From positions 372,001 through 436,000 of the forward strand of contig NMRA01000337.1 of NCBI GenBank assembly GCA_002633005.1: a stretch of 64,000 nucleotides of DNA, given 5' to 3'. Under the pieces are notes generated by a model. That model did no database searches and had not been told where the DNA came from. It saw nothing but the letters and a program-made list of their open reading frames with translations. Below are positions 1,796-58,160 of this stretch, one piece after another; position 1 is the first letter of the stretch; each line of letters starts with the position of its first letter. The stretch comes from Phoronis australis (taxonomy: Eukaryota; Animalia; Phoronida). Made by a program: the position numbers and the translations under genes.

Positions 1796-2630
1796 CTGTT
1801 GAACAATCATTGTTACATTAAGGGAATACCAGACAAAAGTGCAAATTTCACACATAAAACCAATTAATTTTAACGTATATAAGGTTAAGTACCTATATGT
1901 CATCGTGGAGATTTTTGATCCACTTCCGACGGTGGACAACAAGTATGATGACATCAAACCTTATTACATTGCCATGGAAGTTTCATGAGTGGCTATCCCA
2001 TTACTCATTATTAAGGTTGAGCAGGGTTGATGCAAGAATGTTTGTGCACGACTCAGTGAACAATTCGGCCCAATGCACAGTGGCCTAACAAACTGCAACT
2101 ACTGACAAGATCTAGCTTGTCTGATAGAAATACTAAAAACACCACAAAAACCTGAGTAGTGTTGGCAGATATTGCCAAATTCATTAACTACAAACAATCA
2201 GTATAAAGAGGTCTTTAAGTGAAAACATCGCCCAACAATTCCTAATTTTCTTGTCAATGAATTGATGTGAAAGGTGCAGTGTGTCCTCATCATGAAAGTA
2301 GGGCAAGCTTTTCTCTGACAGTTCTGTTTGAAATGAAGCCACAAGTCATAAGACGCCAGGCCTTGAGAGTGTGTTCCACATTTTATGGCAATTACTCATA
2401 GAAAAGGGCAAACCCACTTGCTGCGAGATGTCACACTGAAGTACAAGCAAAACCAGTGATCACATCAGCTTTTAATTCTCTCGAGTTGTTTGTGTCTACA
2501 GAACACAGCCCAGATGTACAATGGGGAAGGTGAACTGCTTGCGACACAATTAAAAATCATTCAGAATTTTGATGTGACATCACAACATGAAATTCATCAA
2601 ATCACTGTAACTACATCAGCCATACTGCAC

Positions 2631-2730
2631 CTTTAATATTCACGTTCTTGTGGTTACTACTTTTACTACTCTGTCGTCGCAGACGTGGAGTTCGAGGGAG
2701 TCTGGGAGAACTGCGGAGACTCGATGAGCT
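2631..2730 (-). CDS. Cav3: Cav3 II-III linker exon (SSSSLRSSPRLPRTPRLRRQSSKSSNHKNVNIK); donor uncertain
   Basis: SLRSSP and RRxSS motifs as in the Cav3 II-III linker; phase-0 acceptor matches the upstream exon; several phase-1 GT options. Confidence 0.6.
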
Positions 2731-3292
2731 CTTTAAATAATAAGATTAATGACATTAGTCACCATGAACACAAAAATGTCAAATATGAATAACGCATTGA
2801 ACACTTAGTGAGAGCATACAAGGACCAGTATACAACAGTTGTTGTAGTGAGATTAAAATAAAAACGGTTAAAGAATGGCATACACTGAACTTTGTAATGA
2901 GAAATTAAAATCATATTTCAATTAATAACTTGTTTAAAATTAATAATAGAAAGTGAAAGCTAGCTGCTTTTGCTCTGGTATTAAATTTTCATTATTTAGA
3001 TTACTGAAAATTTTACATTTTAATTTTAAAAAATTCTCAACAATCATATAGAAGAATTTTTTCTATAGAGTTTCCACAAAACAACACTTGATGAACTTTT
3101 GGTTATTTGAATCACTATCAGGAGCCTCTGGAAACTCAATAACTAGTTACCTTGGGACAGGGTCCCAGATTTTGAGAACCAGTCTGGTGCCTGTTATTCA
3201 GGGGAAAATGTTTCTCAAAATGCAGGACACATAACCATCTTAGAATTAAATAACCGAAAAATTACCATCTCATCAAAAAATTTAACACTTAC

Positions 3293-3495
3293 AACACTTT
3301 TGTCAACCGAATCCATGGAGACATTACTAGAGTTGAATGATGTATTTAGTTTACTGTTGTACATCATCTCATGAGGAGAGCCATGAGGTGTCGCCGCTGG
3401 TGTTGCGGCTGTGTGAGTGATGATAGGTGGGTTTAGGTTCAGCTCCATCTCCTGGCAAACTGTGACAACAGGGGTGAGAGCGTTCAGTTTCTTAG
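3293..3495 (-). CDS. Cav3: Cav3 II-III linker exon (AKKLNALTPVV...PPIITHTAATPAATPHGSP...DKSV)
   Basis: Conserved PxIxHTAATP motif; cag acceptor phase 1, donor GTT|gtaagt. Confidence 0.9.
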
Positions 3496-4582
3496 CTGTC
3501 ATGAAACGAACAGGCAAACAAATCAATCTAGACTGAGAGAGCGAGTGTATGTCACATGAAGTGTAATTCTTCTAAAGCAATAAAAAATTAGCATCACGCC
3601 ACTCTGTGCAAGAAAATAACGCCCTCAAGTCCAATTAAAAGACATGCAATACTACAATTACGCATAGCATTAACAAAATTATGCATAGTGTAAACAAAAT
3701 TGACATAAAATTATACTCAGGGGAATTGTTCAACAACAGCATAAGTTTTTGTCTTTTCATATAACAGTTTTGGTAGAAAACTAAGAATTATATATTAAAC
3801 TCATTTTTCTGTTATTTTTAGAATTTAAGTGTGCATGTAACATGAGTTTGAAATGGTTTCAAACACACCTCAAACACATTTGAATTACAACACGTTTGAC
3901 ATAACAAAACAAATATGGTATGATGGTCGTCATTGAACTACTGGAGGTTCTTAGAAAAAGGAGGAAGTTTCACTTAGTGTTTTTAATTAGTAACGAGAGG
4001 CTCTTCACTTTCTGAAGCATTTCTACAATATCGTTTTAGATTCTCATTCGTACCTACAAATTACTCATCAGTCACTGACAAAACTTTTAACATGTTTTCT
4101 GGTAAGTCCACTACTGAGCATGTAATGTCTTTAAACACATTGGGCGAGTTGAAGAATTTCTTAAGTTGGAGACTTTAATGTTTAAGTGCAGCAGTAGTTC
4201 AGTAAAATCTCAGCTGAGAACATATTAACCAACTCGACAAAACACAGCCTACGGTAAAATCTCACCAATTTCAGACAAAAAATTAGTTGCTAGAAATGGG
4301 TTTTTCATTTTCAAAAGCTTCTAACATTGTTGATAATGGCCACATGATTGTCTGATGCTAGCTACAACACTGCACTTGAAAATGGCAAAGCATTAGGTAT
4401 GACTTACGAAAAAAGAGAAAATAAATTCCGAGCCATACTGAATTTTAAATTGATGAGAGTAAAAAACAGCAATTCTTCACTACTTGCCAAAAAAACTAAA
4501 CCTATATGTCGTCTGTCACTTGATCTGCAACTAGAGACATCTGTTGATGAAATCACAAGTAACTCCACGGAAGACAGCTCAC

Positions 4583-4715
4583 CTTTCTGCTGATTGTTTT
4601 TCTCCTCCTCAATGTCTGCTTTTATACCGTCATCATCATCTGTCATGTTGTTCGCCTTAGCCTCACTTTCACCCTGACTACCAAGTTGCGAGTTCTTTTT
4701 CTTCTTCTCTTCTTC
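4583..4715 (-). CDS. Cav3: Cav3 proximal II-III linker exon (EEEKKKKNSQLGSQGESEAKANNMTDDDDGIKADIEEEKNNQQK)
   Basis: Acceptor tttacag phase 0, donor AAAG|gtgag phase 1; both match the flanking exons. Confidence 0.85.
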
Positions 4716-4952
4716 CTGTAAACAATTGTCAATATTTTCATTCTGAGTGATCTTTTGCCAACTAGCAACATTAAAAAGACCAACAGAACACTCAGCCCAT
4801 CAAAATCTCATTCTCATTTCTTAGGGACTTCTAGGAAATTTGTGATTGAGTGCCCAGGGTCTTTTATTGATGATATATGTATCCCATCACCCAAGAGCAA
4901 TATGCCCACAACTTTATGGCAAATGACATGCTTCTAAGGGTGTTCATTAGTA

Positions 4953-6260
4953 CCGTACTCGTCCGCGTTACCGCCCAGGGTGCTTAAATTGGGAATCTAA
5001 AAAATAGGGGGTGGGCGGTAACCCGAGCATGGGGGGTTAAAATCGAAATTTTTTAAAAGTTTGTTGCTTACTGCATGGAGCTACACTGACGTCAGACTTC
5101 AAGCATATCAGTTAAAATATAGGTCGGGGATTGAAGTAACGGACTTCGACGGCCTGAAGTGGAATAGCACACACGATAAAGTGGCGTCGTGATCCCGAGC
5201 ATGACTGGGTTTTTACGTACCTCGGTCGCTGCTGGTCATCTCTTAGAACTAAAGTATTCATACAGGTAGGCATGCGTTCAGCAGGGCAAATTTCTTGAGA
5301 AAAAAGATAGATCAAGCAAAACTCCGCTAGTTCGCGGAGTATTTCTAAGGGAAGCACTTGAAGTTGTAAACGTTTGCTTCCCGCTGGATGCTTAGGCAAC
5401 CAAACACGTGCTAATGATTGACTGGTTGTTCATACTGAATACTTTGAACTTAGTTTGAACAATCAACGTTTCATATACATTGTATATTTCTTTTTGAGTT
5501 CAAAGCCATCACCGCTCTTGTTCAATAAAGCATGTGCTCAACAATCGGACGATATTACTATTAGGCAATAGGGGGGCTCGGTCGGCTGTCAAAATAATGA
5601 AGCAAAACACATCATGTAAAAAGTCATCAGGTAAATCAAAAGTTGGATGTGGACAGAATGTTTGACTTGCGCTTAATGACAAGTTGATTTCTTGCACTGC
5701 TGCTTTCGGTTGGGCGCTTCCATTTTGGCGTCAGAAGTGAAAGGCATTAAAAACATGTGTTTAACCAAGACGGGGAACAGCGAGACAAGTTGGCTTGTCA
5801 CAGTGGACCATTTCTTTTCTTATTTCAAATGCTCGGGATTGTTATCTTTCGTGTACTGTCACGGGGAATCACAAAAAGGTTGGCCATGAACGTGAAATTC
5901 TTGTCAAGTACTGCTTTGCTGGTTCTTCCACAGCAAATGAAATACATTCGAAAACGCCGTCTCAGTGATCAGTACATACCAACGCGAGTTCCGCGCGCGT
6001 GTGAGCCAAAGGAAACAATTGTCTCCTTCAGTAAAGGGCATGAGAATACGGGTATTTTACCACCATAGTAAGGCAAGGTACCAGTTTCGCTAAAACTGAT
6101 TGATTGTCACAGAAAGGTAAGCAAGTTGTGCACGTTTTGGAATCTTAATGTTGTGCGACGAATGTTCACAGAAGCACAGATACTTTTAAGGAAGTATAGA
6201 TCATGAAAAATTGGGGGTGGGCGATAAGCCAAGCATGGGCCGTAACCCGGACGAGTACGG
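4953..6260. mobile_element. Non-autonomous TIR DNA transposon (Tc1/mariner-pogo-like), about 1.3 kb
   Basis: Termini CCGTACTCGTCC...GGACGAGTACGG flanked by TA on both sides; diverged, truncated second copy at ~55938-57160. Confidence 0.85.
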
Positions 6261-6269
6261 TAATGTAAT

Positions 6270-7120
6270 ATAACCATTAGATAACACAGAATACGTCAAA
6301 CCCGTACAAAAATGGAAAGTATTGTCATTTTCCCGGTAGAAAAACATCAGTGAAATTTTATGAAAATCCAGCAAGGAACTCCAGAGATACAAAAGCCAAG
6401 TGAAAAAAAATTGTCATCGAGTAGCAGCAGTAGTTGCGTTTGTCCATCTGTTGTCAAATTAATAGGAATACACTTGCAAAATTTCCAAGTTTTTGCAAGG
6501 GATTTAGGAAATACAGCTGCAGATGCAAAAAAAGGCACTAAGGGGCACTTCAACAGTTGCATCCACATAAATCAACGTCACTTGCAGTCTTCTTTTCAGG
6601 AGCACATCTGCCAATGCTCATATTGACCCTTCAAAAGAGGTATGGCAGACAGAGAGGCCAACGCCAAAAAAAAATCGAAATTTTTTTTAAAATGGCCAAT
6701 AGGTAGCACAGAATAAGTTAAATCTGTCTGAAACCTATTTGCCAAATTAAAGGAACTTCAAAAATACAGAGGCAAACATAAAAAACTAAAATTGCCACTA
6801 AGTGGGAATAGCAGTTATCGGATCAATCCCAAATTCACGGTCATCTGTCGTCACCTCTATAGGAGCACATCTGCCGTCACCTCCATAGGAGCACATCTGT
6901 CGTCTCCTCCATAGGAGCACATCTGTCGTCACCTCCACAGAAGCACATCTGTCATCTCCTCCATAGAAGCATATCTGTCGTCAACTCCATAGAAGCACAT
7001 CAGCCAAATCCCATTAAGATGGTTCATGGGGTTTAGGAAATACAGCAGCAAACGCCAGATGGCAGATGCCTGGAGATCAGGGCATTATGCAACCCATTAT
7101 GTAAACGTGGGTGCATAAAA
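6270..7120 (+). mobile_element. Degenerate pearl/HINE-like repeat with an internal ~26-bp tandem array (6840-7005)
   Basis: Same modules as 54789-59898 (aaaattgccacta.., tttaggaaatacagc, 3' hairpin plus gcataaaa). Confidence 0.6.
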
Positions 7121-8839
7121 GTATAATGCAATTTTAAGTTTTAATAACGTCAAATTGATTTTCCGATAAATAGGTGCTTATGTAGCAGGTGATAAGAACC
7201 CTGAAATTGGATAATGACCAAAAAAATCATGGAAACACAGAGTGCTGTGAAACATAGCACAAAAAAGCTGTAACGAACGTGACCGCAACATTCAACAAAA
7301 TTTATAAAGTCCAGTATTTGTAGCAATTTTATTTGCAACATGCAGTCTGAATTTGAAGAGGCTTTACTGCAATCAGCTGACCAAATGATAAAAAGCACCA
7401 TTCTTTTGACAATCTAATTGTCAAAACTTTTCTTATAAAATAAACAGTCATGATTAATTTCGCTTGAGAGTTCCAGTGGCCGGTTGCATGAAACACTCCC
7501 AAATAGGTACTCAACTAAGTTCCCTAAACCTACTGAGTATTTTTGGACTTGTGAAAACATCGATTTTCCTTCCTTATATTGTTTTAGTTTCATTACTAGA
7601 TAACTTTTGATTTGATACAAATCGAGAGTGAACTCTACGTTAAATTGTCAATATTATCGAAAATAAGAAGGGATCTTTTGATGCAACACCCACAATTTAA
7701 GGACTAAGTCCCTATTTATTTTCAATGAACTCTGGGCTCAGTTTTTATCTACATTACTAGAAAATGTCATTAATCAAAAAGGAGCTCATAATGAAGATGA
7801 AAATATTGCATCTGTGAGTCCATACAGACACTAATACTCAAAAAGACTTAGGGACCTTAGTTGAGTCCCTATTTGGGACTCTTTCATGCAACCGTTCACT
7901 GATTATTGTATTTCACAGAGTTAATATCCAAGGTGTTTATTTTGGGAATCCCAAAAGCCACATGATGGACAAAAAGCTGAGACAGGTATTTTTAAAAATT
8001 TTGGGGTGGGTACCTAGTGCCCTAGATGTTTATAAAAATGTTGACTGTGTGCTAGCTGTCATTTCTAGTAATTCATTGCAAAAGCTTACATGGGCATGTT
8101 GTTTTGAAGACATTTTGTAAACCAAATGAAAGAAAAAGCGGTGAACAAATATTCAGATGCTCTAACCATACAACATGAAACAGTGCCATCATCGACTTCA
8201 CGGCAAAATTTTGCTAGGCAAGAAAAACAAACAACACAGATAGCACACTCATAATAAATCCTTTGAAGCTTCTTGTCGGAGTTTCACGGCTTCTTTAACT
8301 AGCGTACACAGGACTCCATTTATTAGGCAACATGTGGTGTGAGGCATCAAACGTGAATATTTACACGCACTCAAGTTCTGTGATAACATTTGTTGGCACT
8401 AGAATAAGACAGCTTTGAGTGACAGCACCTGCTGAGGCAATATGCTGTTTTGATTTGTATTTTCTGTTTATGGAAAAAATGGGTTCATACACCCACTGAC
8501 AGGTGATTATGTAAAGCTGAAATTTAAGAAAATCTGACGGTGAACTTGAGCAGGCTAGAGCGATTAAAACAAAAATTTTCAAAAAATGGAGGGAGTTTAG
8601 TGACACCTGGTTTTAACTCAGGGAAATACAATTAGAGTTAAATAGAATAATGAAAGGAAGAGAAATCAGCATAGAACAACATGTTTAACATACATTCCAT
8701 TTCAGACCACACAAAACAGAAATCAGCAGGCAATGCATTCACTTTTGAGAGACTATGACCACGCAGCCAGCACAAAGGTCAAAGTTAGCCTCAATATTAT
8801 TTTGGGAGGAGAGTGGTTCACACCTTTTCTGAAACAGCT

Positions 8840-9990
8840 GCTTGGAGCAGCGGTGCATTGAAATGTGCCCACGAATGCACCGCAAAGGGTGTGCTTCAAA
8901 GGGTGTTTATTTGTATCATAAAAAGGCCACTAGATAGCGCAAAATACGTCAAATCCATCAGCGAATGGGAGCATGTCATTGTTGCTTCTAATAGAAACGA
9001 TTTCCTAAATTTCATAAAAATCCATCAAGAACTTCAGAGAAACAGAAGAAAACTGCCATTAGGAGGCGCCACAGTCATCGCAGTCGTTGAAAAATCATTG
9101 CCAACTGTACTCTTAACACTAAGAACAACTATGCAAATTTTCACAATCATCCTTAGAGTGATTTGGTTGATAGAGGGGCCAACGCCAAAAACAGACTAAA
9201 AACAGTACAAATGGCCCCAAATGTCACAAAAAATGTCAAATTCATTTGGAAATGCGAGGACAGCTTCAACTCACTAATAGATGCCTATCTGCCAAATTTT
9301 ATGAAAATCCAATGAGGACTTACGAAGATACAGAGGAAAGTGTAAAAAACTAAAATTGCCACTAGGGGGCACACTAGTAGTCTGATCTTTCCGAAAGTCG
9401 TCGTCGTTGTCCGTTGTCAACTTCATATAAATGCACTTGCTAAATTTGATAAAGATCCAGTAGAGCCTTTAGGACATCCAGCCATGGGCGCAAAAACAAG
9501 CAAAACTGCAACTAGAGGAGGTGCCACAATAGTCTAAATCATCAGAAAATCATCCACAGCTGCCCTCTTCATAGCAAGAACATGTATGGCAATTTTCACA
9601 AACATCCTAAGAGTGGTTTGTTTGATGGAGGGAAACAGTAAAAATGGCCACTAGGTGGCACAAAGTACCTTGAATCCGTCTGAAAATGGGAGGATAGCGT
9701 CATCTCACAGATTGCTTAACTGCAAAATTTTATGATAATACGTTGAAGACCTTCAAAGATACAGACTGAGGGAAACATGAAAGTTAAATTGCCACTAGGG
9801 GGAACACCAGTAGTCGATAGGTCTGAAATTCATCGTCATCTGTGGTCAGCTTCATAGGAACATATTTGCCAAATCTCATTAAGATCCTGTGAGAGGTTTA
9901 GGAGATACGGCTGAGGACGCCGGGCAGCAGACGTCCAGACAGAGATGACGGCAAGATGCACCCAAATATAAATATGTGGGAGCATGAAAA
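8840..9990 (+). mobile_element. pearl/HINE-like non-autonomous element with internal tandem modules
   Basis: 5' gaaatgtgcccacgaatgcaccgcaaa, repeated ccactagggggc modules and 3' cccaaatataaatatgtggg hairpin shared with 54789-59898. Confidence 0.75.
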
Positions 9991-10507
9991 CCTAGTGAGG
10001 TGCTGTGAGGTTACTTAGTATTCACAGAACAATGAAAAAATAAATAATAGAAACAAACACAATCATGTGACTTGACAAAGTATTATGTGGTCTGAACTGT
10101 CAGAGAGACTTAACCAAAATGAATACCACCAAGGTACGGCATCCGCAAGATGTCTGCAAGCAGTTGATTCAACAATTTCTAGCAAAACTAGTGCCCAGGC
10201 ATTCTATTTGAGCAAGCAATTTGTGAGTGGCAAAATTTCCAAAATTTGTAAACTGAAATATCATTTTTACTGAAGTAGGCTCCATAAATTTCAAAACTTT
10301 TGGACATTAAAAATAATATATCAAAACAGGATCTAAAACTAAGAAATGATAATGTATGAAGAAGTATTTGTCTTAACTAAAAAACCTGGAGGGCTAATCC
10401 TTTTGGTGACATACTGTTCAACAGTAGGTAATCAACCAGACATCTAAAGATGGTCTACCGCAGATCTTAGAATTTCTGCTCAAGAGAAATTGTTGAAAAA
10501 CGCTTAC

Positions 10508-10534
10508 TGACTGATGGACGGCATGGTTACAAGG
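10508..10534 (-). CDS. Cav3: Candidate 27-nt Cav3 microexon (PCNHAVHQS) just after IIS6
   Basis: Branch-like cctaat/ctgac, strong pyrimidine tract ctcttctctcctctag, donor TCA|gtaagc, phase 0/0, no stop. Confidence 0.5.
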
Positions 10535-10625
10535 CTAGAGGAGAGAAGAGTCAGAAGAGATTAGGTGAGACAAGCAAGGGTGGTGACCAAGTGCACTGTG
10601 TGCGGGTAGACATGGCCTGGCATAC

Positions 10626-10781
10626 CTCTGTAGAAAACCCTTCCACCAATATGGCAACTAGAAGATTCAATAAAACGTAGTTGCCAAATGTCATCAGGGC
10701 AACGAAATAGAGAGAGGCCCAAGGCGAAGTCTTTTCCATGCCATTGTACAACACTGTATTCCAATCTTCTTGAGTCAGAAT
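10626..10781 (-). CDS. Cav3: Cav3 domain II selectivity filter + S6 exon, canonical copy ([52 protein letters not shown])
   Basis: 156 nt, acceptor tttcag, donor GAG|gtatg, phase 0/0; close to Cav3 consensus. Confidence 0.97.
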
Positions 10782-10963
10782 CTGAAATAGGGTAAAAAAT
10801 CATGCTGAACAAATTCAAGCCTTAAAAAAAACTGCCTCGAGTCATGTGCTGGTCTATTCCGTAACAGTAAACTGACGGCAACCAGTACTGCCACCTGGTG
10901 TGTGTAAAATAAACCAACACAGGGCACCCTGGCAGTTGAGCAAACCAAAACAACAGTATTTAC

Positions 10964-11125
10964 CTGTAGCTGAGTGGAGAACGTTTGGACAATAACTGCC
11001 ACCAATAGACTGATCAAGACATAAGCCCCAAAAGATATGATTGCATGAAAATAGAGGACAGACCAGGGAGAAATCTGTGTCATGACTGCGTATGTTATAG
11101 CATTCCAGTCTTCGACGGTTAGTAT
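10964..11125 (-). CDS. Cav3: Cav3 domain II selectivity filter + S6 exon, divergent duplicate (ILTVEDWNAITYAVMTQISPWSVLYFHAIISFGAYVLISLLVAVIVQTFSTQLQ)
   Basis: 162 nt, acceptor tttcag, donor CAG|gtaaat, phase 0/0, ungapped alignment to the 10626-10781 exon, no stops. Confidence 0.85.
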
Positions 11126-13139
11126 CTGAAATAAGCACAGTATTAATTGAACATATAAAGAAAGCCCTACATGTATGTACAACAAACAACACAGCCAAAT
11201 ACCAGGCAGTTAGGTTCAGGGTACTCTAATCAATTTGAACAAAGGATGTACTCCTGGACCATTCAGAACCAATAGGTTGCCTATTTATTGAGCATCATGG
11301 AAGCGTTAGTGGGTGATGAATACTTCATATAACATCCTATTATGACCAGAACATAATGGTCCACTTCATATAAGCCAGTTTTAACAAAAAATGATAGCGG
11401 ATATTTTAATTATAACGGATTTAGGTTTATCACTTATTGCAGTACCAAAGCAGCTATTAAGTAAACTTGAATTTTAGGGTTGGGGGGAGGGTGGGGGGAG
11501 ACTTCATCTATGGCACTGCTGTCATTTTTCAAATGCAATGTTAGACTTTTGTTGACTCGTAAACGCCGCGTGATATCAGAGGTAACTTGATGACATGCAG
11601 ACAATAGTATAGAAAATAGACCAGAATCGAAAGCCCAGGTCCACTGCAACAATGACTTCTGATGCACGTACAACTAAGCAACCATCATAGGAAAAAAAAG
11701 GAAAACAGTTGAAACTGGGCCTCAAAATATATCTAATTAAAACTAAGATTAGCCAAATTATTCTTTCTCATGAAAGATTCTCAGGGCATGCGCCATCAAA
11801 TCCCACTGATGTTAAATTTCGTCACCAAAAACTGACAAACTATAAATCAAGTTGACATATTTTATCGTCATCTATTTTGCGCGGGGTACGCCGCGAGCTA
11901 TGTTGCAGAGTAAACAAACTGAGGATTAAATATCATTTATTATGATGTAAATAGAAGAAATGAAGACTCTGCAAGATGTGCATGGAAAAAACGAATATCT
12001 GTGATGTCACTGGATGTTAACTAGTCCACAACTGTACACGTTGCATATGAAAAAAGACTGCAGCCATTTAGGTGACATCATCTGTCTGTCTAACCCAATG
12101 TAGACCTTCATGCCTACCAATAAAATACAATATCACAGTTTTAGGTGTTTTCTGGAAACCTATCACAATTTGCCCAAGCAAAAATCCACTCTGAAATGGA
12201 TCTTAGTTTAGGATCATTTATTCAAAGGCCCTGTTTAAGAGCACATCCTTGTGTTCAAGTAGCAGACGGGAGTCCTTAAATGTCAGATAAAGTTTCAGGT
12301 GAACATGTTACGAATTAATAATATTTAGGCTAGAATCTTGAACACAGTCATGTAAAAATAACACAACCTTCTAAATTATTCATCTCACAGGTTTTGGATG
12401 TCAAATGTTTCCATGTTGACAATACTTACGTACAGCTGACCCAGATTTTGAGAACCAGTTTTATACCTACCTCACAGTTCAGTAGGAAAACTGGTTCTCA
12501 AAATGCTGTACCCCTGTGATTATTAAGAATTTTTTTATAGAATTAAAACAAAATAGCAATGTTGTTAAAAATGAGATCCTATTTTAAACAAGACAATAAC
12601 TAACTACGGTATCAAAGTTATATAATACTAGGTACAGATTTACAAGTTAGAATGATTAACATTAGATTGAATGCTAAAGCCCTAGACAACAATAATTAGG
12701 TTAAAACCGTCAATTTCAAACTAGAATTAATCACGATTGCACAAGCAGACCCAAGCACAGACACAATCAATATTCTATTCATAATGCATGTGTGTAAATT
12801 AAGATTGGCGAATTGCCATATTAAAAAGCTTTGAAGTGTGGTCCACAGCCAAAAATTAAAGAACAAAGCTTTTTGAAGATGACACTGTCTCTAATGCTGC
12901 TGCAGCTCTTAACCTGCCTACTCAATATGTAAAATGTAGTTTGAGTTGACCACATAGCATTATCTAAGATTGGTGAACAATTACAAGTAATTTGTAGGAT
13001 TAAAAAGAACTGTCAGGATGTTAACACTCGCGACCAGTGACAATAAGTTGGCTTGATACAGCAAGCCATTTTAGGCACGCAGCAAATAATTATAACCTGA
13101 GAAAGGGATAAGTTGAAATCAGTTTTATTTTAATGACAA

Positions 13140-13730
13140 ATTGTCAATGGTAATTAAGTCATATTTATGGTCAATGGTAATCAAGTCATATTTATGTTAA
13201 ATGGTCAATGGTAATCAAGTCTTTTTCATGGTAAATGGTACCCAAGTCATATTTATAGTAAATAGTCAATGGTAATAAAGTCCTTTTTATGCTAAATGGT
13301 AATCACGTCATATTTATAGTAAATGGTCAATGGTAATCAAGTCTTTTTAATGGTAAATGGTAATCAAGTCCTATTTATGGTAAATGGTCAATGGTAATCA
13401 AGTCCTTTTCATAGTAAATGGTAACCAAGTAATATTTATAGTAAATGGTCAATGGTAATTAAGTCCTTTTTATGGTAAATGGTAACCAAGTCATATTTAT
13501 AGTAAATGGTAAATGGCAATCAAGTTCTTTTTATGGTAAATTGTCAATGGTCACCAAGTCCTTTTTATGGTAAATGGCCAATGGTAAGCAAGTCCTTTTT
13601 ATGGTAAATGGTCAATGGTAATGAAGTCACTTTTATGGTAAATTGTCAATGGTAATCAAGTCCTTTTTATGGTAAATGGTAATCAAGTCACTTTTATGGC
13701 AAATTGTCAATGGTAATTAAGTCATTTTTG
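13140..13730. repeat. Minisatellite, ~26-34 bp units (gtcaatggtaatcaagtcctttttatggtaaatg)
   Basis: Visible tandem array. Confidence 0.95.
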
Positions 13731-15164
13731 CAAGAAGGCAGGCCAGCAGAAAGTAAATAGAAGCATTCTCTGCACTAGCATTAGAAAGATCTCAGGGCAA
13801 CAAGTAGCCATTCAAAATAGTAGCATGATGCGGACATTTTGGACTAAATGATGCAATAAACCCAACTTTCGAATTACGGTTGTGTAGGACTCTTCAAATT
13901 TAGCTATCCTAAAAAAACTTTATCTCAGAAATGGCTCATCAGATTCATATGAATGGCTCATCAGATTCATATGAAACTGAGATACTAAGCTTTATGCACT
14001 GTTCTCCAAAATGATGAGATTCCTTTCAAATTCATTCACTTTTCCATAAGCAGTTATAAAAATATGACATTTATGATATTTATAAAAAAGGAAAATTGCA
14101 TAAAAAGAAAGCAAAATGACAAATTGGAGATCTCATATAGAACATTCAGCAAATTTGTTATTGACACCATTTTTCATATATTGTACGGTAACCTTTCTTA
14201 TCTGCTAAATGTTAATAAAAATTGCCAATTGGTATATAAAGTCAAAGCAAAATTTTACAGGATTTCTACTTTCAAAAATGCGAACTTTTCTTGAGTAAAA
14301 TTCTTTGCAGAAATAAGGCTGAATGCGGAGAATTGTGGATAGCGTCTTCCATAACTTTAAGCCACTTAATGAACAATGCAATATTGGTCTCCTTATTAAG
14401 ATTAGAAATGATTTGAAGATTTGAGAAGAGTTGACAGGTCATAATTGCTTCAAACTAGTCCCATTAAGCCGCTTGTCACAACGGGTTAGTTTTAGTCACC
14501 CAGACAGGGAATTCTAAGCGATTTATTATAAGAAATTTTATTTCAAACAATGGCTCAACATAATGCCTTGTAATACATAGTAAACAAGATGACATTTTTA
14601 ACAACAGGACATGATTTGCAGCAACAATTCTTTTTTTTCACAATACGTGTTTCAGACGTTCATTTACAAGAGCTTCAAAAAAATTAATTTGTACCCAAAT
14701 CCCTGTAGTTGGCATGACCGGTCTCACTAGGGGCCACTGCTATCGTCAACAACTTAAAGGGCAGTGTCATCACTAATATTTGCAAATAATCACCAGTCGT
14801 ATTAGAAATAAGTTTTATATCAATTTTCGCAAGAAAATGTTTTCAAATTGTTACATTAAAAAAATCTTAGTGCGCATGAGATGTATCAGTGCTACCTCGC
14901 AATTACTTCGTTTACTGCAATGCCATTTAACTACCAAAGATGGTGTGAACGGTTCAATTAACTTCACAGTTGACATCGTTGCTCCGCTGATACCGGAGTT
15001 AAAGTTAGTAGGAAAGGGTCTTTAGAGGTCAGTACATAAACTCAAATAACATTATTGCCAAACGAAAACAAAAGAGCAATTACCAATAATTTTAAAAGCT
15101 CAACATGCTGGCCAAAATTGAAAGAGAGCCTGATCATGAAACAGAAAAGGTGGTAATTTGGAAA

Positions 15165-15485
15165 ATACACCACAGCACTGACTTACCATGATTGAAATGA
15201 CTAGGCAGTTTGACTAAGTATACACCAGCACTGACTTACCATGACTGAAATGACTAGGCAGTTTGACTAAATATACACCAGCACTGACTTACCATGATTG
15301 AAATGACAAGGCAGTTTGACTAAATATACCCCAGCACTGACTTACCATGATTGAAATGACTAGGCAGTTTGACTAAATATACACCAGCACTGACTTACCA
15401 TGATTGAAATGACTAGGCAGTTTGACTAAATATACCCCAGCACTGACTTACCACGATTGAAATGACTAGGCAGTTTGACTAAATA
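15165..15485. repeat. 53-bp tandem repeat, about 6 copies
   Basis: Unit cagcactgacttaccatgattgaaatgactaggcagtttgactaaatatacac. Confidence 0.95.
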
Positions 15486-17845
15486 ACCATTTTGAAATAT
15501 ATGCATAAAACATTTAAAGAGAGCCAACATGTACTGACAATAAAGGTCATTGCTGAGACAACAATGATGAAAATAATAATGGCGCAGAACCAGTAGCGTG
15601 CTGAGGTTTGGTGATGCTTGGGGGCGATTTTTTAATGGATGCCCCCTTTTCTCTACTCAAATGCATGGACCCCAGTACTAAGAAAAGTTAAGAAAGATGA
15701 AACATGAAACAGAAATTTTATTCAATTTAACTACAAATCAGCTACAATTTCAAAAAGTTTATTCATTTTGATCAGATGCCCCCCATGTGGATGCCTGGGT
15801 CAGTTGCCCTGTCGCCCACACCCCTTCTACAAGGAACATAAGACTACAGCCCTGACTATTTGTGATCATGTTTGTCATCTGGAAAGTACACATGTACTGA
15901 GTACAAATAACCCATATGTTGAACCATAAGCAAAAGAGAGGTGCAACTTCTTAGTTTTACAGGCTCACGCAAGGTGGTGCTGTAGTATGTCACTGACATA
16001 CAGTGTCTAGCAAAAATAGACAACTGGTCTCAGTAACTGTGATAACATGCACACACACCATTTCATTTATTATAGGCAGTACAAGTGTGTCTAACTGGCT
16101 GGAAGTAAAAAAACACCAGCACAACGTACATGACAATTACATGTGGGTACACGTTTCGTATCGTCATACGATTTTGACATTTTGGACCCACCCAAATAAA
16201 ATCTTAATGTCTACGTTAAAAATTACAATAATAGTAAGGCCACATTTTACATTACGTATACTAAAAGGCTATGGACCAGACCAATCTAAAACCTTCTCAA
16301 CTCCCCAGGAGCATACAATGGATGCAACCCTTGTCAGTGCATACCGAGAACTCCAAACACAAATACTGTAAAAGTTTCTGATAACATGATTATTTTAAAG
16401 AGAAAGATATCCAAGAGTGAAATTTTTGGCAATGTGATGTGACTGCATTTCTATTGCTATTGTGGGCCAAATGGTGTTGTGATAACACATGACACATTAT
16501 CTAAGCATTAGTATTGCAAACAGTGAGAGCACAAAACTAGATTATAGAGTGAAATATCAATTATTCAAGACTCGCTGTGTTAAAACCAACTTGAAAGTCA
16601 AAATATTATCTGTATCCATACACACACACCTGACATAAGATTAAGGTTAGGTTAACAGCTATTGTATAAAACAACACAGAATATTACATCATGACCTATC
16701 ACTACCTGGGGTGGATTTAGGCTACTGCCTACAGGCACTGGGCGGTTACTGCTACACAAACTACACGTAACGATAACAGCAATATACCACATGAGATGAG
16801 AGAGGCTCTTGTTAACCTCAAAGTCACCCATCATGACACAAGGATACACCACAGCAAATTGAATTACAGGCTCATGTATCTATACAGATGGCAATCATAG
16901 TAAACGTTATAGATGAAACTACGAATAAACAAATTCACGAAAAGACATTTGTGCTTGCCAAGAAGTCCACTTTAAAATACCATACAAGATCATGTCAATG
17001 TGTCAACAGTCTTCATTTTAAAGGCGAAGGCAACCTTTTTCCATGTCATTTTGAGCTAAAATAAGGTTGGTTGGTTATCCTAGACATATTTTCCACTTAA
17101 TTACAGCTTTTCGTAATTTTACAAATTACTCGTCCGCTACTCCGGAAGTGACGTTTTAGGAGGCAAGCGTTTCCCGCCACTTGGTTTTGCGTTGACTTTA
17201 CCGTGCGAATCTGTTCTATTCTACTTTTGTTTTGTGCTGTTTTTCAACAATTGTCGCCACCACTTTCCATCNCTGCCCTAAATTACTCAACCGTATCCAG
17301 TAAGTATCGTGACATGGTGTTGAAGAATAACTCTGCATGATGCAGGCTAACTCTACATGATGCGGGCAATGTGAGCCCCCAAGGTACGTCATTAGAGCAA
17401 AGATCATCTATTTGTACAATGTTTTGTTTTCACAACTAGTTGTCAATGAATACAACTGCACTTTGTTCAGCGTATATGATGTTCTAACAGCATTGTCGTT
17501 TAGTTCCTGCTATTCATTAGTATAGTTAGGATGAAACAGGCTGAAGCCGTTGGTAAAACTGGTTTTTAGCTGGAAGTTAAGACAAAAGCCAATATAGACT
17601 TATTGAGAAACACGCCCAGAGAAAACTTAAGCATGCATTTCACTCAGGTCAACTTGACAAACGCAACTGAGGATGTTTATCAAAAGAGAGGTCAACGTAT
17701 CAAATATAATTTAAATTTATAAGAACTTATGCACAATTACAATCTTTGTCTAGCAAATATACTGAAGGTTGGGAAATTAAAAACAGAATCTGCAACCACT
17801 TGAATGTCTACAACGTGTAAATTAGTAACTAGGTAGTAAATTTAC

Positions 17846-18002
17846 CTGGAAGACCGTGACAAAAGCCCACAACAAGCTATCAAAGTTCGGCCGCGAACAA
17901 TGACACTGGCTGGTTAAGGTTGAATTACGAACAGCACAGTCACAGCTAGATCCGTCTGGAAGCTGGCAAAATTTCCCGCCAAACAAACTCATACCTAGAA
18001 CG
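17846..18002 (-). CDS. Cav3: Cav3 exon 12b, long five-cysteine domain II turret ([52 protein letters not shown])
   Basis: 157 nt, phase 2/0, donor CAG|gtaaat; C...CxC...CxC pattern typical of invertebrate exon 12b. Confidence 0.95.
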
Positions 18003-18610
18003 CTACCACCAGCCATGCAAAAGAAAACAACACAATTGCCAGTGAACGAACACAAACCATCAGTTTGAAGTGTAACTAGAACCCAGCCGTATTCCACTCT
18101 ACGTATTGTGGATAGGAGGGAAGGTCAATAAAGGCATAATACAACATATTGCAAGGTGTTTTGTCCACAAAGTAAAAAATTTTCCCAAATTTTTTTGGAA
18201 ACTGTATGAATTAACTACTGCAGTTTTGGAGAAAATATTGCAAGCATTATGCAAACCATCAAAAATTAACCATGGCACAGTTGTTTTGTTCAAAATGCTG
18301 CTTTTTTAACATCCCCTGTACCAGCGAGTAGGAATACGGCCACGGGCGCTACAGCAAGTAATTCTACATCTGAAAGCACAGCATGGTGACTAAAGGCAGG
18401 ATTATCGTGAGATACCAGGGATACTACATGGTTCTAGAGCCAGCTTCTCTCTGTTAGAACGGTCCATGCTTCATGTTTCTAGCTTGGCAAAGTTTTTTCT
18501 TTGACTTCTCCAAGCCAACGCTAGAAACGTGAATGGCCATGCATGAAACAATGAAAGGGGGATGGGCTATATACATGCAGGGTATAAGCGGCCTAGTCAC
18601 TTGGGTATAC

Positions 18611-18728
18611 CTGGAATACTGTTACTATCGCCCATAACAAGGAGTCAAAGTTGGCGCGACTTCTCCTTTTGCGACCATCGTATGTCATCCGGTCAAATTT
18701 GCATCCAAATAGGTTCATGCCTAATATA
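18611..18728 (-). CDS. Cav3: Cav3 exon 12a, short domain II turret ([39 protein letters not shown])
   Basis: Not in the ORF track; read by hand. 118 nt, acceptor tctctctacag, donor CAG|gtatac, phase 2/0, paralogous to 17846-18002. Confidence 0.95.
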
Positions 18729-19451
18729 CTGTAGAGAGATAGTGTCAGTTGGAGAGAGGGCACCAGGTTATATTAAGGTTATGAGTAATGCTAAAAAAAC
18801 ATCCTAATTTGGCGATCTTCGCAATATGATACATTAGAAAAAACAGTTAGAAATAACTGTTTTAAAAAATTTCGAAAGTTGCAACTTTTACAACGTTATT
18901 GAAGAAACTCAACAAGAGCATAAAACTAATTAAAATAAATGTTTATAAAACTTTGGTAACTATGTGCAATGAAATTAGGTCCTGGCCTAGATTTGGTGTT
19001 TCCATAAAGCTATTTTATCGTAATAAACTCAAGCATTCCCACTCTGGTCGAGTCAAATAACGTGAGTGAGGAAAATCCCATTCAAACCAGTTCTATAGTG
19101 TGACCAGTTTGATGTCTCTGAGTTTGCATCAAGGCAGCCATTTTGCATTATGACTATGAATGCCTTCTTTTAAAATTTTAAGAAGCATGGAGATATAATC
19201 CAGTCAATGGCAGATTGGTATAATGTTGAAAATTGAATTTTAGACACTTTTTTTTCCACAAAATATACACTTTTATTGAGTTAAATTATATAGTTTGAAG
19301 GTAGCTAAATGCACAGTCTTACTCATAACCTTAAGTTAGTAATTGGGGATTAGAAAGTTGAGTCTTGGGTACTGTAAACAGTGTACAAGAGTTACCATTA
19401 ACTATTACCACATATGGTAATTAGCCTACCATGAGGTTAAATAGTGTTTAA

Positions 19452-21010: not shown

Positions 21011-21196
21011 CTGAAGATGAACATAAATAAGACTAATAAGACGAAGAAGGTGGCCACATTGTCCATAGTTCTCACCATCACCACCAGCTGGCGCTTCAAG
21101 GCTGGCATGAAACGCACCAACTTGAGAATACGCAGCAAGCGGAACGTTCGCAACACAGACAGACCACTGTTACTGCCCAAGAAGAGCTCTACCAAG
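21011..21196 (-). CDS. Cav3: Cav3 exon, IIS3-S4-S5 ([63 protein letters not shown])
   Basis: S4 voltage sensor; phase 2/2; donor AG|gtgag. Confidence 0.97.
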
Positions 21197-22502: not shown

Positions 22503-23923
22503 TAGCTACGATAAAATCTCAATGCAAATCATAATAGTGGACACAATGCGGCAGACAAGGCTAAGTTCTTTTTTTCACTAAAGAAATGTTTCATCATTTG
22601 AAAGGTACATTTGAAAGGTGCATAGCACAGCTGATATTTTGAGAAACTGTTATCCTTCACAACTGCAGTGTCAGAGGCTTTATTGCAACTGTGCTTCTTC
22701 ACAACTACAGTGTCAGAGGCTTTATTGGAAAAGATCAGTTTTGGCAAGTAACAATAAATCCTGGTCAGATCATATCTAGACTGACTGGGCTGCGCTGTTA
22801 AAAATAAAAGATAAGTCAAAAAATGTTTGAACATAAACCAGTAACAATTCTGAATTCCTCGTCAAATGCTGATCATGTTTTTGAATTACTAAAATCACCC
22901 AAGTACAACCAAAGTTAATTAGAGAATCTGTCCAAACCCACATTACAGTTTCACTAACTCTTTATGGCCATTCCCACTGGCTCTGAACACTTAACTTTGG
23001 TCTTTAATCAAACTTAACAGCGCAAGTTAACTCTGAAGTAAAGAGGTGGTTTTAACAGCTACAATGGGAACCCACAACTTCAATGTCATTGGGGTTATTG
23101 GCAGGGGTCAGTGCCTGCGCTTGCCAACAGCGAGCAGTGACTGGTTAATATTTCTTAATATTTTGTTATATTATCTATTATTTTGGCAGTGTCAGCATGC
23201 CCTTTCATTTTATCCATGTGTTGGTTGAATTGTTTACTACAAAAAATCACTGAACGTATGGGGTACACAAAATGAGTTCCCATCACACCTTCTTTGTTCA
23301 GATCAACTGTTAGCCTACTTGAGAGTCAATGTTTTAATATGCCACCTTCCTGTGCATCACAATCTTACCAACATGGTGATCATTGCCTTGAAAAGTTGGG
23401 GAGAGGGCGAGGTGCTTCCCATATTTGTTGGCAAGCACAAAAACAGCAAAGCATATGACTGACGGTCATATTAGCTCCACCTAGCGATAACTTTGCTTAA
23501 CTAGATTTTTTAATAACTTTGAAGACGATGGGAACACTAACGCTTATCTTTGCGGTTAATTATACTTAACATCGAAACTTGGATAGTAGTGGGGAGTTAA
23601 CTATATGGTAAAGGGTCTATTGAAACATGGTAAATAAGTGGCCTGCATGTTTTCATACCAGGCAAAAGACTGGACACAGTAGCTAACAAAGGAGCAAGAT
23701 GTTATCAGATGTTCACAATCAGAACAAGTCTGGTTAGGTCATTGAGCAGGAGAACACCCTGATGATTAGTGTGATCTACATAATTATGATATTGGCAAAC
23801 TTGTAAGATACAAAAGCCATGCTTGTAATATCCCTAGTTAAATGTCTGACCACAAATAATGACTTCCAAATCTATTGCCTTGGTGTGATGCAGTATATCT
23901 AATATAGTCTACAAGTCAGAATT

Positions 23924-24082
23924 ACCTGCTTATGGTACTCAATACCCAAAAACTCAAAGTGAGTTACCTGCTTATGGTACTCAATACCCAAAAACTCAAA
24001 GTGAGTTACCTGCTTATGGTACTCAATACCCATATACTCAAAGTGAGTTACCTGCTTATGGTACTCAATACCCATACTCAAA
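23924..24082. repeat. 42-bp tandem repeat spanning the Cav3 IIS1 exon end and its splice donor (four donors)
   Basis: acctgcttatggtactcaataccca repeated at 42-nt spacing. Confidence 0.95.
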
Positions 24083-24173
24083 GTGTTGATGAGAATAGCC
24101 ACAAGTATGCCATATCTGAAGCCTTTGCTGTCAACGAACGTCTTCAAGTAGGGACGATACTTCTTCCAACAAG
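24052..24173 (-). CDS. Cav3: Cav3 exon, IIS1 (CWKKYRPYLKTFVDSKGFRYGILVAILINTLSMGIEYHKQ)
   Basis: Matches Cav3 IIS1 consensus; phase 1/0; further in-frame donors would end the exon at 24010, 23968 or 23926. Confidence 0.95.
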
Positions 24174-54788: not shown

Positions 54789-57700
54789 AACAAGAGCAAC
54801 GCAGAGCATTAAAATGCGCCCACGAATGCACCGCAAACGATGTGCGTCTAGATTTGTTCATTTCTATCATGAAATGGCCACTAGATGGCGCAACACATCC
54901 ACTCCTGAAAACGGAACATGCCACCGGTTCTTTAATAGAAAGCAATTAACCAAATTTCCTGTCAAGGAACTTCAGAGCAGCAAAGGAAAACGGAAAAAGT
55001 GAAATTGCACCAAGAGGGTGCACCATCTGCCTCAAACTCGTCATCTATTGTTAGCTTCATTTACACTTACTAAATTTAATAAAGATCTTGCATCGGGTTT
55101 TGGAAATACAGCTACGGCTGCAAAACAAAATAAAACCACCACTAGGAGATGCCACAGTAACCGAAGTTGTCAGCGTAACCAACCTCTTCACACTGAGTAC
55201 ACGCCAATTTTCAAAGCCATTCTTAGAATAGTTTGGTTGATAGAGGGGTGGACGCCAAGACACAGACTGGAAAACAATAAAAATGGCCACTAGGTGGCGC
55301 AAACTACCTAGAATGCATCTGAAAACAGGAGGATGGCGTCACAGGGCTCAACATTAACTTTTATTTTAACTTGTCCATACGGACAAGTAGAAATGAAATT
55401 TACTAGTCCTGACCTATAAGACACTTGTCCGAAGATAATTAAATTCAAATTATACTTTTCAAACATATGTGAATGTTGCACATTATACCTGTTAGCACAA
55501 GCCCAATAAACATGTGAAAGAGCATATATTACACGAGATTTAAATTTTGCACAAGTTTATTAAAGTGGGTATTTGTATTTGGATTTCACCAGTGAACACG
55601 CTACAAGTTTCCCCTGGCTTTTTAATTCAGTTATATAATGCTGAGTGAGCCGTCGACTGTTCATGACTTCAGAGATTCGATCCTGAACACATCTGACCCA
55701 TACTCAACAGATGAACTGTTTGCGTCGCGTATTTTGCAGATGGGACACAACAAATTTTACTTCTGGTCGCTATCAAACCGTACGGTAACCTGTCAAAATC
55801 TTTCTTTCATTTCGGAAGAAATTCCTGTTTTTGTTTATTGGTTTCATACAGTTGCTTGGTGATTTCACGCCCTTTGGTTTGGTTACCACTTGCAAGATCA
55901 GAACTCCACGACTTGAAACCATACGCAAACTAACTACCCCTACTCGTCCGCGTTACCGCTCTGGGCGCTTAAATTGGGAATCTAATAAAAACGGGGTGGG
56001 CGGTAAGCCGAGCATGGGCGGTTAAAATCGAAATTTTGGAAAGTCAGTTGTTGCTTACTGCACTGAGGACCGATTTCACCCTAACGGAGATACACTGACG
56101 TCGGATTTCAAGCATATCAGTTAAAAATAGAGGTCGTTGGATTGAAGTAACGGACTTCGACGACCCGCGCACACGATACAGTGACGTCGTGATCCTGAGC
56201 GTCCTTGGGTTTTTACGTACCGTGGTCGCTGCTGGTCATCTCTTAGAACTAAGTTATTCCTACAGGTAGGCGTGTGTTCAGTAGGGCAAGTTTCTTGAGA
56301 GAAAAGACAGATCAAGCAAGACACCACTAGTTTGCGGTGTATTTTTAAGGGAAGCACTTGATTGTGTAAAGATTTGCTGGGCAATTAGGCAACCCAGCAC
56401 GTGCTAATGATTGACAGGTCTTCTTATTGAATAATTTGCACAATGCAACGTTTTATATACATTATTTCTTTTTGAGTTCAAAGCCAACACCGCTGTCGTT
56501 CAAAGCACGTGCTTAACAATCCGACGATACTACTATTAGGCAATAGGGGTACTCGGTCAGCTGCCAAAATAATGAAGCAACAACACATCTTGTAAAGTCA
56601 TCAGGCAAATCAAGAGTTCAAAAAAATAAGTTATTAACCACGTAGAACATGGACAAAATGTTTGACTTGCACTAATGACAAGATTTTTTTGGGCTCTTGC
56701 CTTTGATTGGGCGCTTCCATTTTGGTGTCGGGAGAGAAAGTCATTAAAAACATGCGTTTAACCAAGACGGGAATAGCGACACAAGTTGGCTTGTCACAAT
56801 GGACCATGTCTTTTCTTATTTCAATGCTCAGGGTGGTTATGCTTCTTGTACTGTCACGAGGAATCACAGAAAGATTGGCCACGGACATGATATTCCTGTC
56901 AAGTACCGCTTTGCTGGTTCTTCAGCAAACTAAATATATTCGACGAGCGCCGTCTCAGTGATCAGTACATGCGAACATGAGTTGCGCGCGTGAGCCAAAG
57001 GAAACAATTGTGTCTCCTTCAGTAAAGGGCATGAGAATACGGGTATTTTACCGCCATTTAAGGCAAGGTCCCTGTTCCGCTAAACCCGATTGATTGTCAC
57101 AGAAAGGTAATTGAGTTGCGCATGTTTTGGAATCTTAATTTTGTGCGACGAACGTTCGCAGAAAAATTCATTGACTTGTCCTGTGGGACAAGCTGCTCGG
57201 CCGTGAGCTTGTCTGGATCAACAAATTTGTTGTCCCGGGCAGTCGGACTTCCGTTAATGTCGAGCCCTGCGTCATCTCACCAATAAATGCCTATATTCCA
57301 GATTTTATGAAAATACGTTAAGGTACAAAGGTAAACAAAAAACTAAAATTGCCACTAGGGGGCGCACCAGTTATTCGATTACGTGCGAAAGTCGTCCCTG
57401 TCCGTTGCCACCTTCATATAAATACACTGGCTAAGTTTAGTAAAGATCCCGCAAACGGTTTAGGAGATACAGTCATGAGTGCAAAAAAAACTGCCACTAG
57501 GAGGCGCCACAGTAGTTGAAGTCGTTGGAAAATCATCGTCAGCCATCCTCTTGATGGTAAGAACATACACGTCAATTTTCACCACCATTCTTAGAGTGGT
57601 TTGGTTGGTAGAGGAGTGGATGCCAAAAAACACTCGAAAACAGTAAAAATGGCCACTAGGTTGCGCAAACTACATCGAATCCAGCCGAAAACGAGAGGAT

Positions 57701-57986
57701 AGTTTCAACTCACTAATAGATACCTATGCTCTAAATTTTATGAAAATACGTTGAGGACTTTCAAAGATACAGAGGTAAGTGTAAAAAACTAAAATTGCCA
57801 CTAGGGGGCACACCGGAGAGGTCCGAAATTCATAGTCATCGGTTGTGACCTTCTACGAACACAACTGCCAAATCTCATCAAGATCCTGTGAGAGGTTTAG
57901 GAGATACAGCTGCGGACGCCGTACGCCTGGGCAGACAGAGCCGACGGCAATATGCGACCACATATAAATATGTGGGCGCATAAAAA
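54789..57986 (+). mobile_element. pearl/HINE-like element interrupted by a nested transposon
   Basis: 5' aacaagagcaacgc, internal tandem modules, 3' ccacatataaatatgtggg hairpin plus cataaaaa. Confidence 0.75.
55342..57269. mobile_element. TIR element with a 5-bp TSD (hAT5-like), carrying a truncated copy of the 4953-6260 element
   Basis: CAGGGCTCAACATTAAC...GTTAATGTCGAGCCCTG; CGTCA at 55337-55341 and 57270-57274. Confidence 0.85.
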
Positions 57987-58160
57987 TGAATGCCTGAATT
58001 GGCCCATCTGAGTAAGTTAAAAAAAAATGCCTTGAATTTTATCTTGACCACCAAAAATGTTAAAGAATAACTTAACCCTGGCTTTCTGATCAAAGGTATT
58101 GAAATTTATTAAATTTGACCAGAATGAGCAGGCAACAAAAATCATGTCTCCTAAACAGCG

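Follow-up and report, generated by a model that had tools for sequence, protein, structure and literature searches.

A divergent duplicate of the domain II filter/S6 exon as a probable splicing alternative in a Cav3 gene of Phoronis australis

The 64,000 nt stretch of DNA that was analysed (the window) carries part of a Cav3 (T-type) channel gene, in which the short and long exons 12a and 12b are followed by two versions of exon 13, which encodes the filter, P2 helix and S6 of domain II. Judging from the sequence, the divergent version (13a) probably replaces the canonical one (13b) in a minority of transcripts, with a predicted effect on gating and the inner pore more than on ion selectivity. 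The either/or pair 12a/12b is an already known invertebrate Cav3 system. Exon 13a, known from the genomic sequence of one genome, is the new part and extends this system: published splicing of invertebrate Cav3 ends just before the selectivity filter, and 13a would carry it through to the gate.

The gene was assigned to Cav3 because its closest relatives of solved structure are Cav3 channels (E values of 1e-17 to 1e-24), while the next family among Cav1/2, Nav and NALCN reached 1e-6 to 1e-9. A quick tree of Cav3 proteins placed it as a lophotrochozoan Cav3 outside the sampled molluscs and annelids; both of our Cav3 trees were quick trees, the second one built without three rows that had long branches and without further redundant taxa. 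Of the EEDD filter ring expected of a T-type channel, the window includes the glutamates of domain I (SLEGW) and domain II (TQEDW or TVEDW); domains III and IV lie beyond it. Within the window, duplicate copies exist for exons 12 and 13 alone.

Table 1. Features of the Cav3 locus (window positions)
Feature	Position	Strand	Remarks
Exon 11	21011..21196	-	constitutive; domain II S3 end, S4, S4-S5 linker and the larger part of S5; phase 1 at its end; best PDB matches human Cav3.2/3.3/3.1
Inverted repeat, upstream arm	19319..19334	-	16 bp, intron 11-12a
Inverted repeat, downstream arm	18773..18788	-	perfect 16 bp, 45-60 nt before the 12a acceptor; overlies a motif that we take to be branch-point-like
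Exon 12a	18611..18728	-	short turret + P1; 118 nt, 39 aa, phase 1-0; one Cys, a run of basic residues, Ala where the sodium-switch lysine would be
Exon 12b	17846..18002	-	long turret + P1; 157 nt, 52 aa, phase 1-0; five Cys (C...CxC...CxC), Pro at the switch site
Exon 13a	10964..11125	-	filter TVEDW, P2 helix and S6 of domain II; 162 nt, 54 aa, phase 0-0; divergent duplicate
Intron 13a-13b	10782..10963	-	182 nt; read-through from 13a meets no stop for 62 codons; a long, modestly stable hairpin is predicted
Exon 13b	10626..10781	-	canonical; filter TQEDW, P2 helix and S6; 156 nt, 52 aa, phase 0-0
Exon 14	4583..4715	-	opens the II-III linker; acceptor in phase 0 (starts at 4715); borders inferred from AG/GT and weak homology

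The coordinates given for the four alternative exons in the earlier note were confirmed, all with AG..GT ends. With the phases listed in Table 1, from exon 11 to exon 14, each of the four single-choice joins of an exon 12 to an exon 13 is in frame, as had been proposed. Inclusion of both 12a and 12b leads to a frameshift and a stop, since 12b is then read in frame 0. The lengths of 13a and 13b are multiples of three, and both double inclusion and double skipping keep the frame, so that decay of aberrant mRNA could not enforce a choice between them. No frameshift guard and no standout long-range pairing of the docking type was found as an exclusion mechanism for 13a and 13b, and the hairpin predicted for the intron between them (z -2.1) is not a convincing one; the use of one exon 13 per mRNA would require some other splicing block. 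The intron between them is long enough for splicing and has normal ends. The two exons are homologous, adjacent, nearly equal in length and equal in phase, as expected of a tandem exon pair. The order 12a-12b-13a-13b points to two independent duplications instead of duplication of one block; exon 13 would thus have been duplicated in tandem separately in this lineage, with 13b presumably the default exon.

Tandem short and long exons 12 with shared borders are present here as in other invertebrate Cav3 genes. Exon 12b agrees in length and Cys number with the form described for invertebrates (C...CxC...CxC, five Cys, 48-55 aa; PMC7382465). In the accounts of Lymnaea LCav3 and C. elegans CCA-1, the equivalent gene likewise has these exon borders and a short 12a followed by a long five-Cys 12b (PMC7382465), but their 12a has three Cys and the switch lysine. 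The 12a of the present gene is indeed atypical, as the earlier note held: the intraturret Cys pair is lost, leaving one Cys instead of the CxxC...C of the sodium-permeable form, a basic stretch is present, and Ala stands in place of the lysine that precedes NFD and neutralises the beacon aspartate. Among 103 distinct short exon 12 sequences with one to three Cys, this site is K in 102 and R in one, and Ala occurs in none. Mactra P0241, the one other protostome-type 12a with a single Cys in the compared set, retains K. A 12a lacking the switch lysine offers a test of how general the lysine/beacon rule is.

Exon 13a matches residues 817-867 of human Cav3.3 with an E value of 9e-20. Its protein aligns to that of 13b without gaps and with 29/52 identities, and 91 of 156 nt are identical (32, 41 and 18 of 52 at the three codon positions). 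Synonymous sites are saturated (pS 0.82, pN 0.29), and there is no stop or indel. We simulated neutral evolution with 13a free of constraint and 13b constrained, and counted the exons that were still open and matched the observed amino acid identity (n=1056). A third-position identity as low as 18/52 was reached by none of these exons, and substitutions as conservative as those of 13a by 18. Both 13a and 13b show coding constraint in this test, which is blind to recent loss. This supports the view that 13a is an old duplicate that purifying selection maintained through most of its existence, and is compatible with a recent loss of function. Eight of the nine residues that are invariant across 120 Cav3 exon 13 matches are retained in 13a, while 13 of its positions, one of them a His in S6, carry residues found in none of the 120; D, E, K, R and P are absent from positions 21-46. 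The donor of 13a fits the U1 consensus at 8/9 positions (13b: 6/9), and the acceptor has 11/17 pyrimidines, within the range of this gene (9-13).

Long purifying selection, together with splice sites that match those of neighbouring exons in quality, makes a swappable filter/P2/S6 exon likely. The proposal that the whole pore module of domain II is exchanged goes too far, because most of S5 is encoded by exon 11, which is constitutive, 12a and 12b differ by a single residue in the C-terminal part of P1, and 13a and 13b share the filter E-D pair. It is improbable that 13a, after long service, is now a silent pseudoexon and that 13b is the sole partner of 12a and 12b. A recent decay would go unseen, since about 15% of neutral exons (872/6000 runs) were still open with AG/GT at d 0.2, and the lack of any orthologue found, the 13 replacements at near-fixed positions and the loss of a conserved S6 asparagine fit such decay. 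Against it stand the saturated synonymous sites with conservative replacements, the donor that exceeds that of 13b, and 52 codons free of indels.

In 13a the filter glutamate and the 'beacon' aspartate are kept, as in 13b, and V replaces Q at filter position -1. The P2 helix has fewer charges and is more hydrophobic, and S6 is altered at residues aligned to N952, F956 and the conserved N957 of Cav3.1 and to the gate isoleucine I860 of Cav3.3. These changes fall on near-fixed residues of animal Cav3 that align to human gate or inner-cavity ligand contacts (Q922, N952, F956, N957 and Cav3.3 I860). Mutation of the gate residue I860 in Cav3.3 is described to shift activation and slow inactivation (PMC8422349), and conserved S6 asparagines to stabilise the open pore (PMC8876033). 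As the differences of 13a lie mostly in P2 and in gate residues of S6, altered gating is the likelier effect, and a channel with 13a is predicted to have altered gating and inner-pore properties. The suggestion of a differently gated channel is therefore plausible on the aligned S6 residues. The residues of 13a at the 13 positions where it stands apart from all 120 matches could also indicate a product that conducts poorly or is decaying.

The other part of that suggestion, a more sodium-permeable channel, found no support in its known form: 13a keeps the E-D pair and 12a has Ala at the sodium-switch site, which leaves this gene without the established way of becoming permeable to sodium. In Lymnaea Cav3 the lysine at this site of 12a switches the channel to sodium, and K1067A abolishes the sodium preference (PMC9694082). 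Sodium-permeable Cav3 channels of cnidarians are marked by loss of the beacon aspartate (PMC10120453), which is present in 13a. These findings speak against free two-by-two mixing with a sodium-permeable 12a-13a channel as its main purpose, which we consider quite improbable even though two atypical exons do occur in one gene and 12a is basic and lacks the intraturret Cys pair; removal of turret Cys raised sodium permeability in Lymnaea (PMC7382465, PMC9694082).

Which exon 12 would accompany 13a is a separate question. Free pairing of 13a with both is possible, and pairing mostly with 12a a fainter possibility; the latter partnership is structurally plausible, because the turret sits in the groove between P1 and P2 in the published model. 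It is unlikely that this lineage dropped the lysine sodium switch of 12a and evolved a 13a that is spliced with the remodelled 12a, giving an alternative domain II pore module from turret to gate with new permeation and gating. If so, the 12a-13a channel would be a natural swap experiment on S6 and P2 in a T-type channel.

Replacement of 13b by 13a was also weighed against other uses of the short intron between them. If this intron were kept, 62 more codons would follow 13a up to a stop at 10777-10775, and the resulting truncated two-domain (DI-DII) protein could be regulatory or degraded. We regard this as very doubtful. The frame is open across the entire intron, for which we estimate by hand a chance of a few percent, and the intron is predicted to form a long hairpin, but the open frame was spotted post hoc, and the donor of 13a is strong and in a phase that exactly fits exon 14. 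It is very improbable that 13a is added in frame before 13b as an extra filter/P2/S6 unit, most likely non-conducting and regulatory: both exons are phase 0-0 with normal intron ends, but an additional membrane helix would be expected to invert the topology of domains III-IV, and the retained filter and invariant S6 residues suit a working pore better. An assembly artefact, a second haplotype or an exon that belongs to an adjacent paralogue can practically be dismissed, since 91/156 nt identity with saturated synonymous sites far exceeds allelic difference, the flanks of 13a and 13b are contiguous and N-free nearby although the window has assembly gaps, and no further exon of a second Cav3 gene lies in the window; two database proteins (P0161, P0191) do contain two copies of exon 13 that score equally, as duplicated gene models would give.

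RNA depth was low throughout. In three shallow runs, out of four that were matched to the locus by species label only, exon bins on the expected strand had a depth of about 0.4-1.7 (about 17% of each run, 2500-13100; repeats dominate). The bin with most of 13a had 0.49, 0.85 and 0 and did not stand out from an intronic bin (12058-12411), which had 0.82, 0.84 and 0.38. At a depth of about 1 per run, none of the 15 joints listed links these exons (149 more are unlisted).

A second exon 13 was found in none of 80 animal loci and none of 10 isoform clusters. Among 358 proteins there was no orthologue of 13a (best identity 29/52), no protein listed in two full-length Cav3 searches carries it or could be recognised as that of the animal itself, and a word-based search with 13a alone, a weak method, gave nothing at E 0.001. 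Some of the positions changed in 13a are also variable in the teleost Cav3-like proteins P0009, P0076 and P0104, which come from short or partial records. A literature search for a duplicated Cav3 exon 13 gave no report, with mention possible in alignments, supplements or subscription papers outside the texts seen; 'exon 13' does not occur in the main texts of PMC7382465, PMC4436565 or PMC5379919.

Related arrangements are known from other channels. Exons 8 and 8a of Cav1.2 encode S6 in a mutually exclusive manner and change both gating and drug sensitivity, but in an L-type channel, in domain I and with much less divergent copies. The exons 15a/15b and 31a/31b of NALCN are described as lineage-restricted, tandem duplicated pore exons that carry a selectivity-filter residue, exon 15 likewise in domain II (PMC4436565). 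In these pairs K takes the place of E at the filter, whereas 13a and 13b differ in P2 and S6; neither an E-to-K switch nor loss of the beacon D distinguishes them. In anthozoan cnidarians, too, one animal has the domain II filter/P2/S6 segment of Cav3 in two versions, but by gene duplication and with the beacon aspartate, kept in 13a, changed to asparagine in one copy (PMC10120453). If expressed, 13a would provide naturally selected substitutions for testing T-type gating and block.

The introns around exon 12 were also inspected for pairing. For the 16 bp repeat before 12a (Table 1) no counterpart was seen in the loci of other animals, where the longest pairing was 7-12 bp (17 testable stretches of 24 listed). 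The intron between 12a and 12b folded no better than shuffles (z -0.5), and contains one local duplex at -32 kcal/mol.

By its sequence the gene encodes a Cav3 T-type channel, and among solved structures human Cav3.2, 3.3 and 3.1 are closest to exons 11 and 13a. Its coding sequence in the window reaches from S4 of domain I through the I-II linker and domain II into the beginning of the II-III linker. Seventeen Cav3 queries gave no match to the domain I S1-S3 exons in 36800-64000 (27 kb), and these upstream exons lie beyond the window or inside a gap. A quick tree of 21 proteins gave support of 92 to a group of 13 lophotrochozoan entries that includes the window sequence; this sequence belongs to neither the mollusc nor the annelid group and lies, without resolution, beside a nemertean.

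Exons 12 and 13 are the only ones doubled within the window. The short 12a and long 12b encode the domain II turret and P1, the divergent 13a and canonical 13b the filter, P2 helix and S6. All four are minus-strand exons with AG..GT ends at the positions first assigned to them: 18728-18611 for 12a, 18002-17846 for 12b, 11125-10964 for 13a and 10781-10626 for 13b. The earlier note had proposed that every pairing of 12a or 12b with 13a or 13b is in frame. Splice ends and phases bear this out, since the phases of exons 11 to 14 agree for all four single-choice pairings, and the joined chain 11-12b-13b-14 is translated without a stop. Inclusion of 12a and 12b together leads to a stop codon. The exon order points to two independent duplications, which would make 2 x 2 mixing possible without implying it.

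Exons around the duplicated pairs and the inverted repeat upstream of exon 12a (window coordinates)
Feature	Position	Strand	Length	Remarks
Exon 11	21196-21011	-		ends phase 1
Exon 12a		-	118 nt	starts phase 1, ends phase 0
Exon 12b		-	157 nt	starts phase 1, ends phase 0
Exon 13a		-	162 nt	phase 0-0
Exon 13b		-	156 nt	phase 0-0
Exon 14	start at 4715	-		phase 0
Perfect 16-bp inverted repeat	19319-19334 with 18773-18788			covers 45-60 nt before 12a acceptor

The 12a/12b pair is already known; the duplicated exon 13 is new. We favour, with some reserve, the view that 13a is a minor, swapped-in filter/P2/S6 exon that would retune gating. Exons 13a and 13b share 29 of 52 residues without gaps and 91 of 156 nucleotides (pS 0.82, pN 0.29), with 32, 41 and 18 of 52 identities at codon positions 1, 2 and 3. 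Neutral evolution was simulated with 13a unconstrained and 13b constrained (six divergences, 6000 runs each), and runs with an open frame, intact AG/GT and 26-32 identical residues were counted (n=1056). Third-position identity of 18 or lower occurred in 0 of the 1056 runs (means 28-38), and replacements as conservative as those of the real 13a in 18, in a simulation that is biased toward neutrality by omitting indels. This indicates that 13a is an old duplicate under constraint, and a later, recent loss of function would be compatible with the simulation. We regard such recent silencing as unlikely; the splice signals of 13a are ordinary by this gene's standard.

Exon 13a was compared with the 120 library hits, out of 150, that match 13b at 30 or more of 52 residues; many of these are redundant fragments. 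Of the nine positions invariant in this set, 13a retains eight, including filter T, E and W, and the beacon D, the aspartate after the filter E, is also kept; 13 residues of 13a are found at the corresponding position in no member of the set. Aligned to Cav3.1, 13a shows Q922 to V, N952 to A, F956 to I and N957 to S. It has V in place of the isoleucine aligned to Cav3.3 I860, and its P2 helix has lost E and K and gained hydrophobic residues. According to the respective studies, Q922, N952 and F956 of Cav3.1 are ligand contacts in docking poses (PMC10110893), asparagines conserved in S6 have a stabilising effect on the open pore (PMC8876033), and I860 of Cav3.3 belongs to the activation gate, with I860N and I860M shifting activation by -15.5 and -8.1 mV and slowing inactivation (PMC8422349; I860V lies outside that study). 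As ligand-contact, gate and S6 asparagine positions are changed, we infer that 13a would alter gating and inner-pore pharmacology rather than filter charge. Five divergent teleost Cav3-like proteins (P0009, P0076, P0104, P0105, P0120; short or partial records) carry L in place of Q just ahead of the filter E of domain II, and their S6 is altered at some of the positions changed in 13a.

Exons 12a and 12b are known from protostomes, with the same exon 12 borders as here (PMC7382465). For Lymnaea 12a, PMC9694082 traces sodium preference to a single lysine neutralising the beacon aspartate of domain II, and K-to-A abolished it; removing cysteines by itself increased sodium permeability in Lymnaea. 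Exon 12a here encodes the usual 39 residues, yet a single cysteine: both intraturret-bridge cysteines are lost, the one tethering to domain I is retained, and Ala occupies the switch-lysine site. Among 143 distinct exon-12 sequences recovered by pattern from 496 proteins, 103 contain between one and three cysteines; at this site 102 of them carry K, one carries R and none carries Ala. The known sodium switch is thus absent. The loop carries several further basic residues and, given these and the Lymnaea cysteine effect, permeation is not predictable. The bivalve Mactra antiquata (P0241) has a single-cysteine 12a that retains the lysine, its intraturret pair apparently lost independently. Six metagenome-contig loci (L009, L012, L013, L015, L016, L018) have a very long exon 12b, near 70 aa, whose cysteines are arranged differently; these loci resemble a bdelloid rotifer protein (P0051).

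The suggestion of a more Na+-permeable or differently gated channel remains plausible in its gating half, through the P2/S6 changes of 13a. The sodium half is weakened because 13a keeps E-D and 12a lacks the lysine, and we consider a strong sodium-channel form quite improbable, an estimate that overlaps with the favoured reading in that both assume use of 13a. Read-through from 13a into the retained intron (10963-10775, minus strand) meets a stop only after 62 open codons and, if translated, would yield a two-domain protein; we doubt even more that such a truncated product is the role of 13a. Tandem inclusion of 13a and 13b keeps the frame, as does skipping both, and is very unlikely. The anatomy of the four exons is real, and an artefact is hardly credible.

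A second exon 13 was found in 0 of the best 80 of at least 157 confirmed animal exon-13 loci on metagenome contigs, which represent fewer than 80 independent lineages, several coming from closely related annelid-like hosts. Within these best 80, 36 have exon 12 upstream and hence cover the interval where 13a sits, 8 have two exon 12s, and 55 have flanks of 500 nt or more on either side. Seven of 10 annotated isoform clusters contain both 12a and 12b and none an alternative exon 13 (of the 130 members listed, 108 cover the region). Across 358 proteins nothing matched 13a better than 29/52, the level of an ordinary exon 13, the named hits being without brachiopod, phoronid or bryozoan Cav3. A duplicated exon 13 of Cav3 is not described in the literature searched, and supplements or alignments beyond it may mention one.

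RNA depth over the exons was near 1 in three runs, like some intronic bins, and no informative junction was seen. An interspersed repeat family at 8872-9933 (also about 55000-60000), of which other parts of the window seem to hold further copies, reached a strand-biased depth of 140-260 in each of the three runs. The 16-bp inverted repeat covers what we take to be the branch-point region of 12a. None of 1000 shuffles reached 16 (maximum 14), a statistic picked after the repeat was seen; the longest pairing at the gene's other 12 acceptors is 8-10, and the loci of other animals yielded no equivalent repeat. The repeat may repress 12a, possibly as an RNA switch. The 182-nt 13a/13b intron folds modestly better than shuffles (4/200, z -2.1; second test 9/200), which does not explain exclusivity of 13a and 13b. 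At 23922-24085 (minus strand), a 42-nt unit is repeated in tandem four times with 96% similarity between copies, and the S1 exon of domain II has its donor inside this array. The exon end and an in-frame GT donor recur in every copy, and alternative donors could insert 14-residue repeats into the S1-S2 loop.
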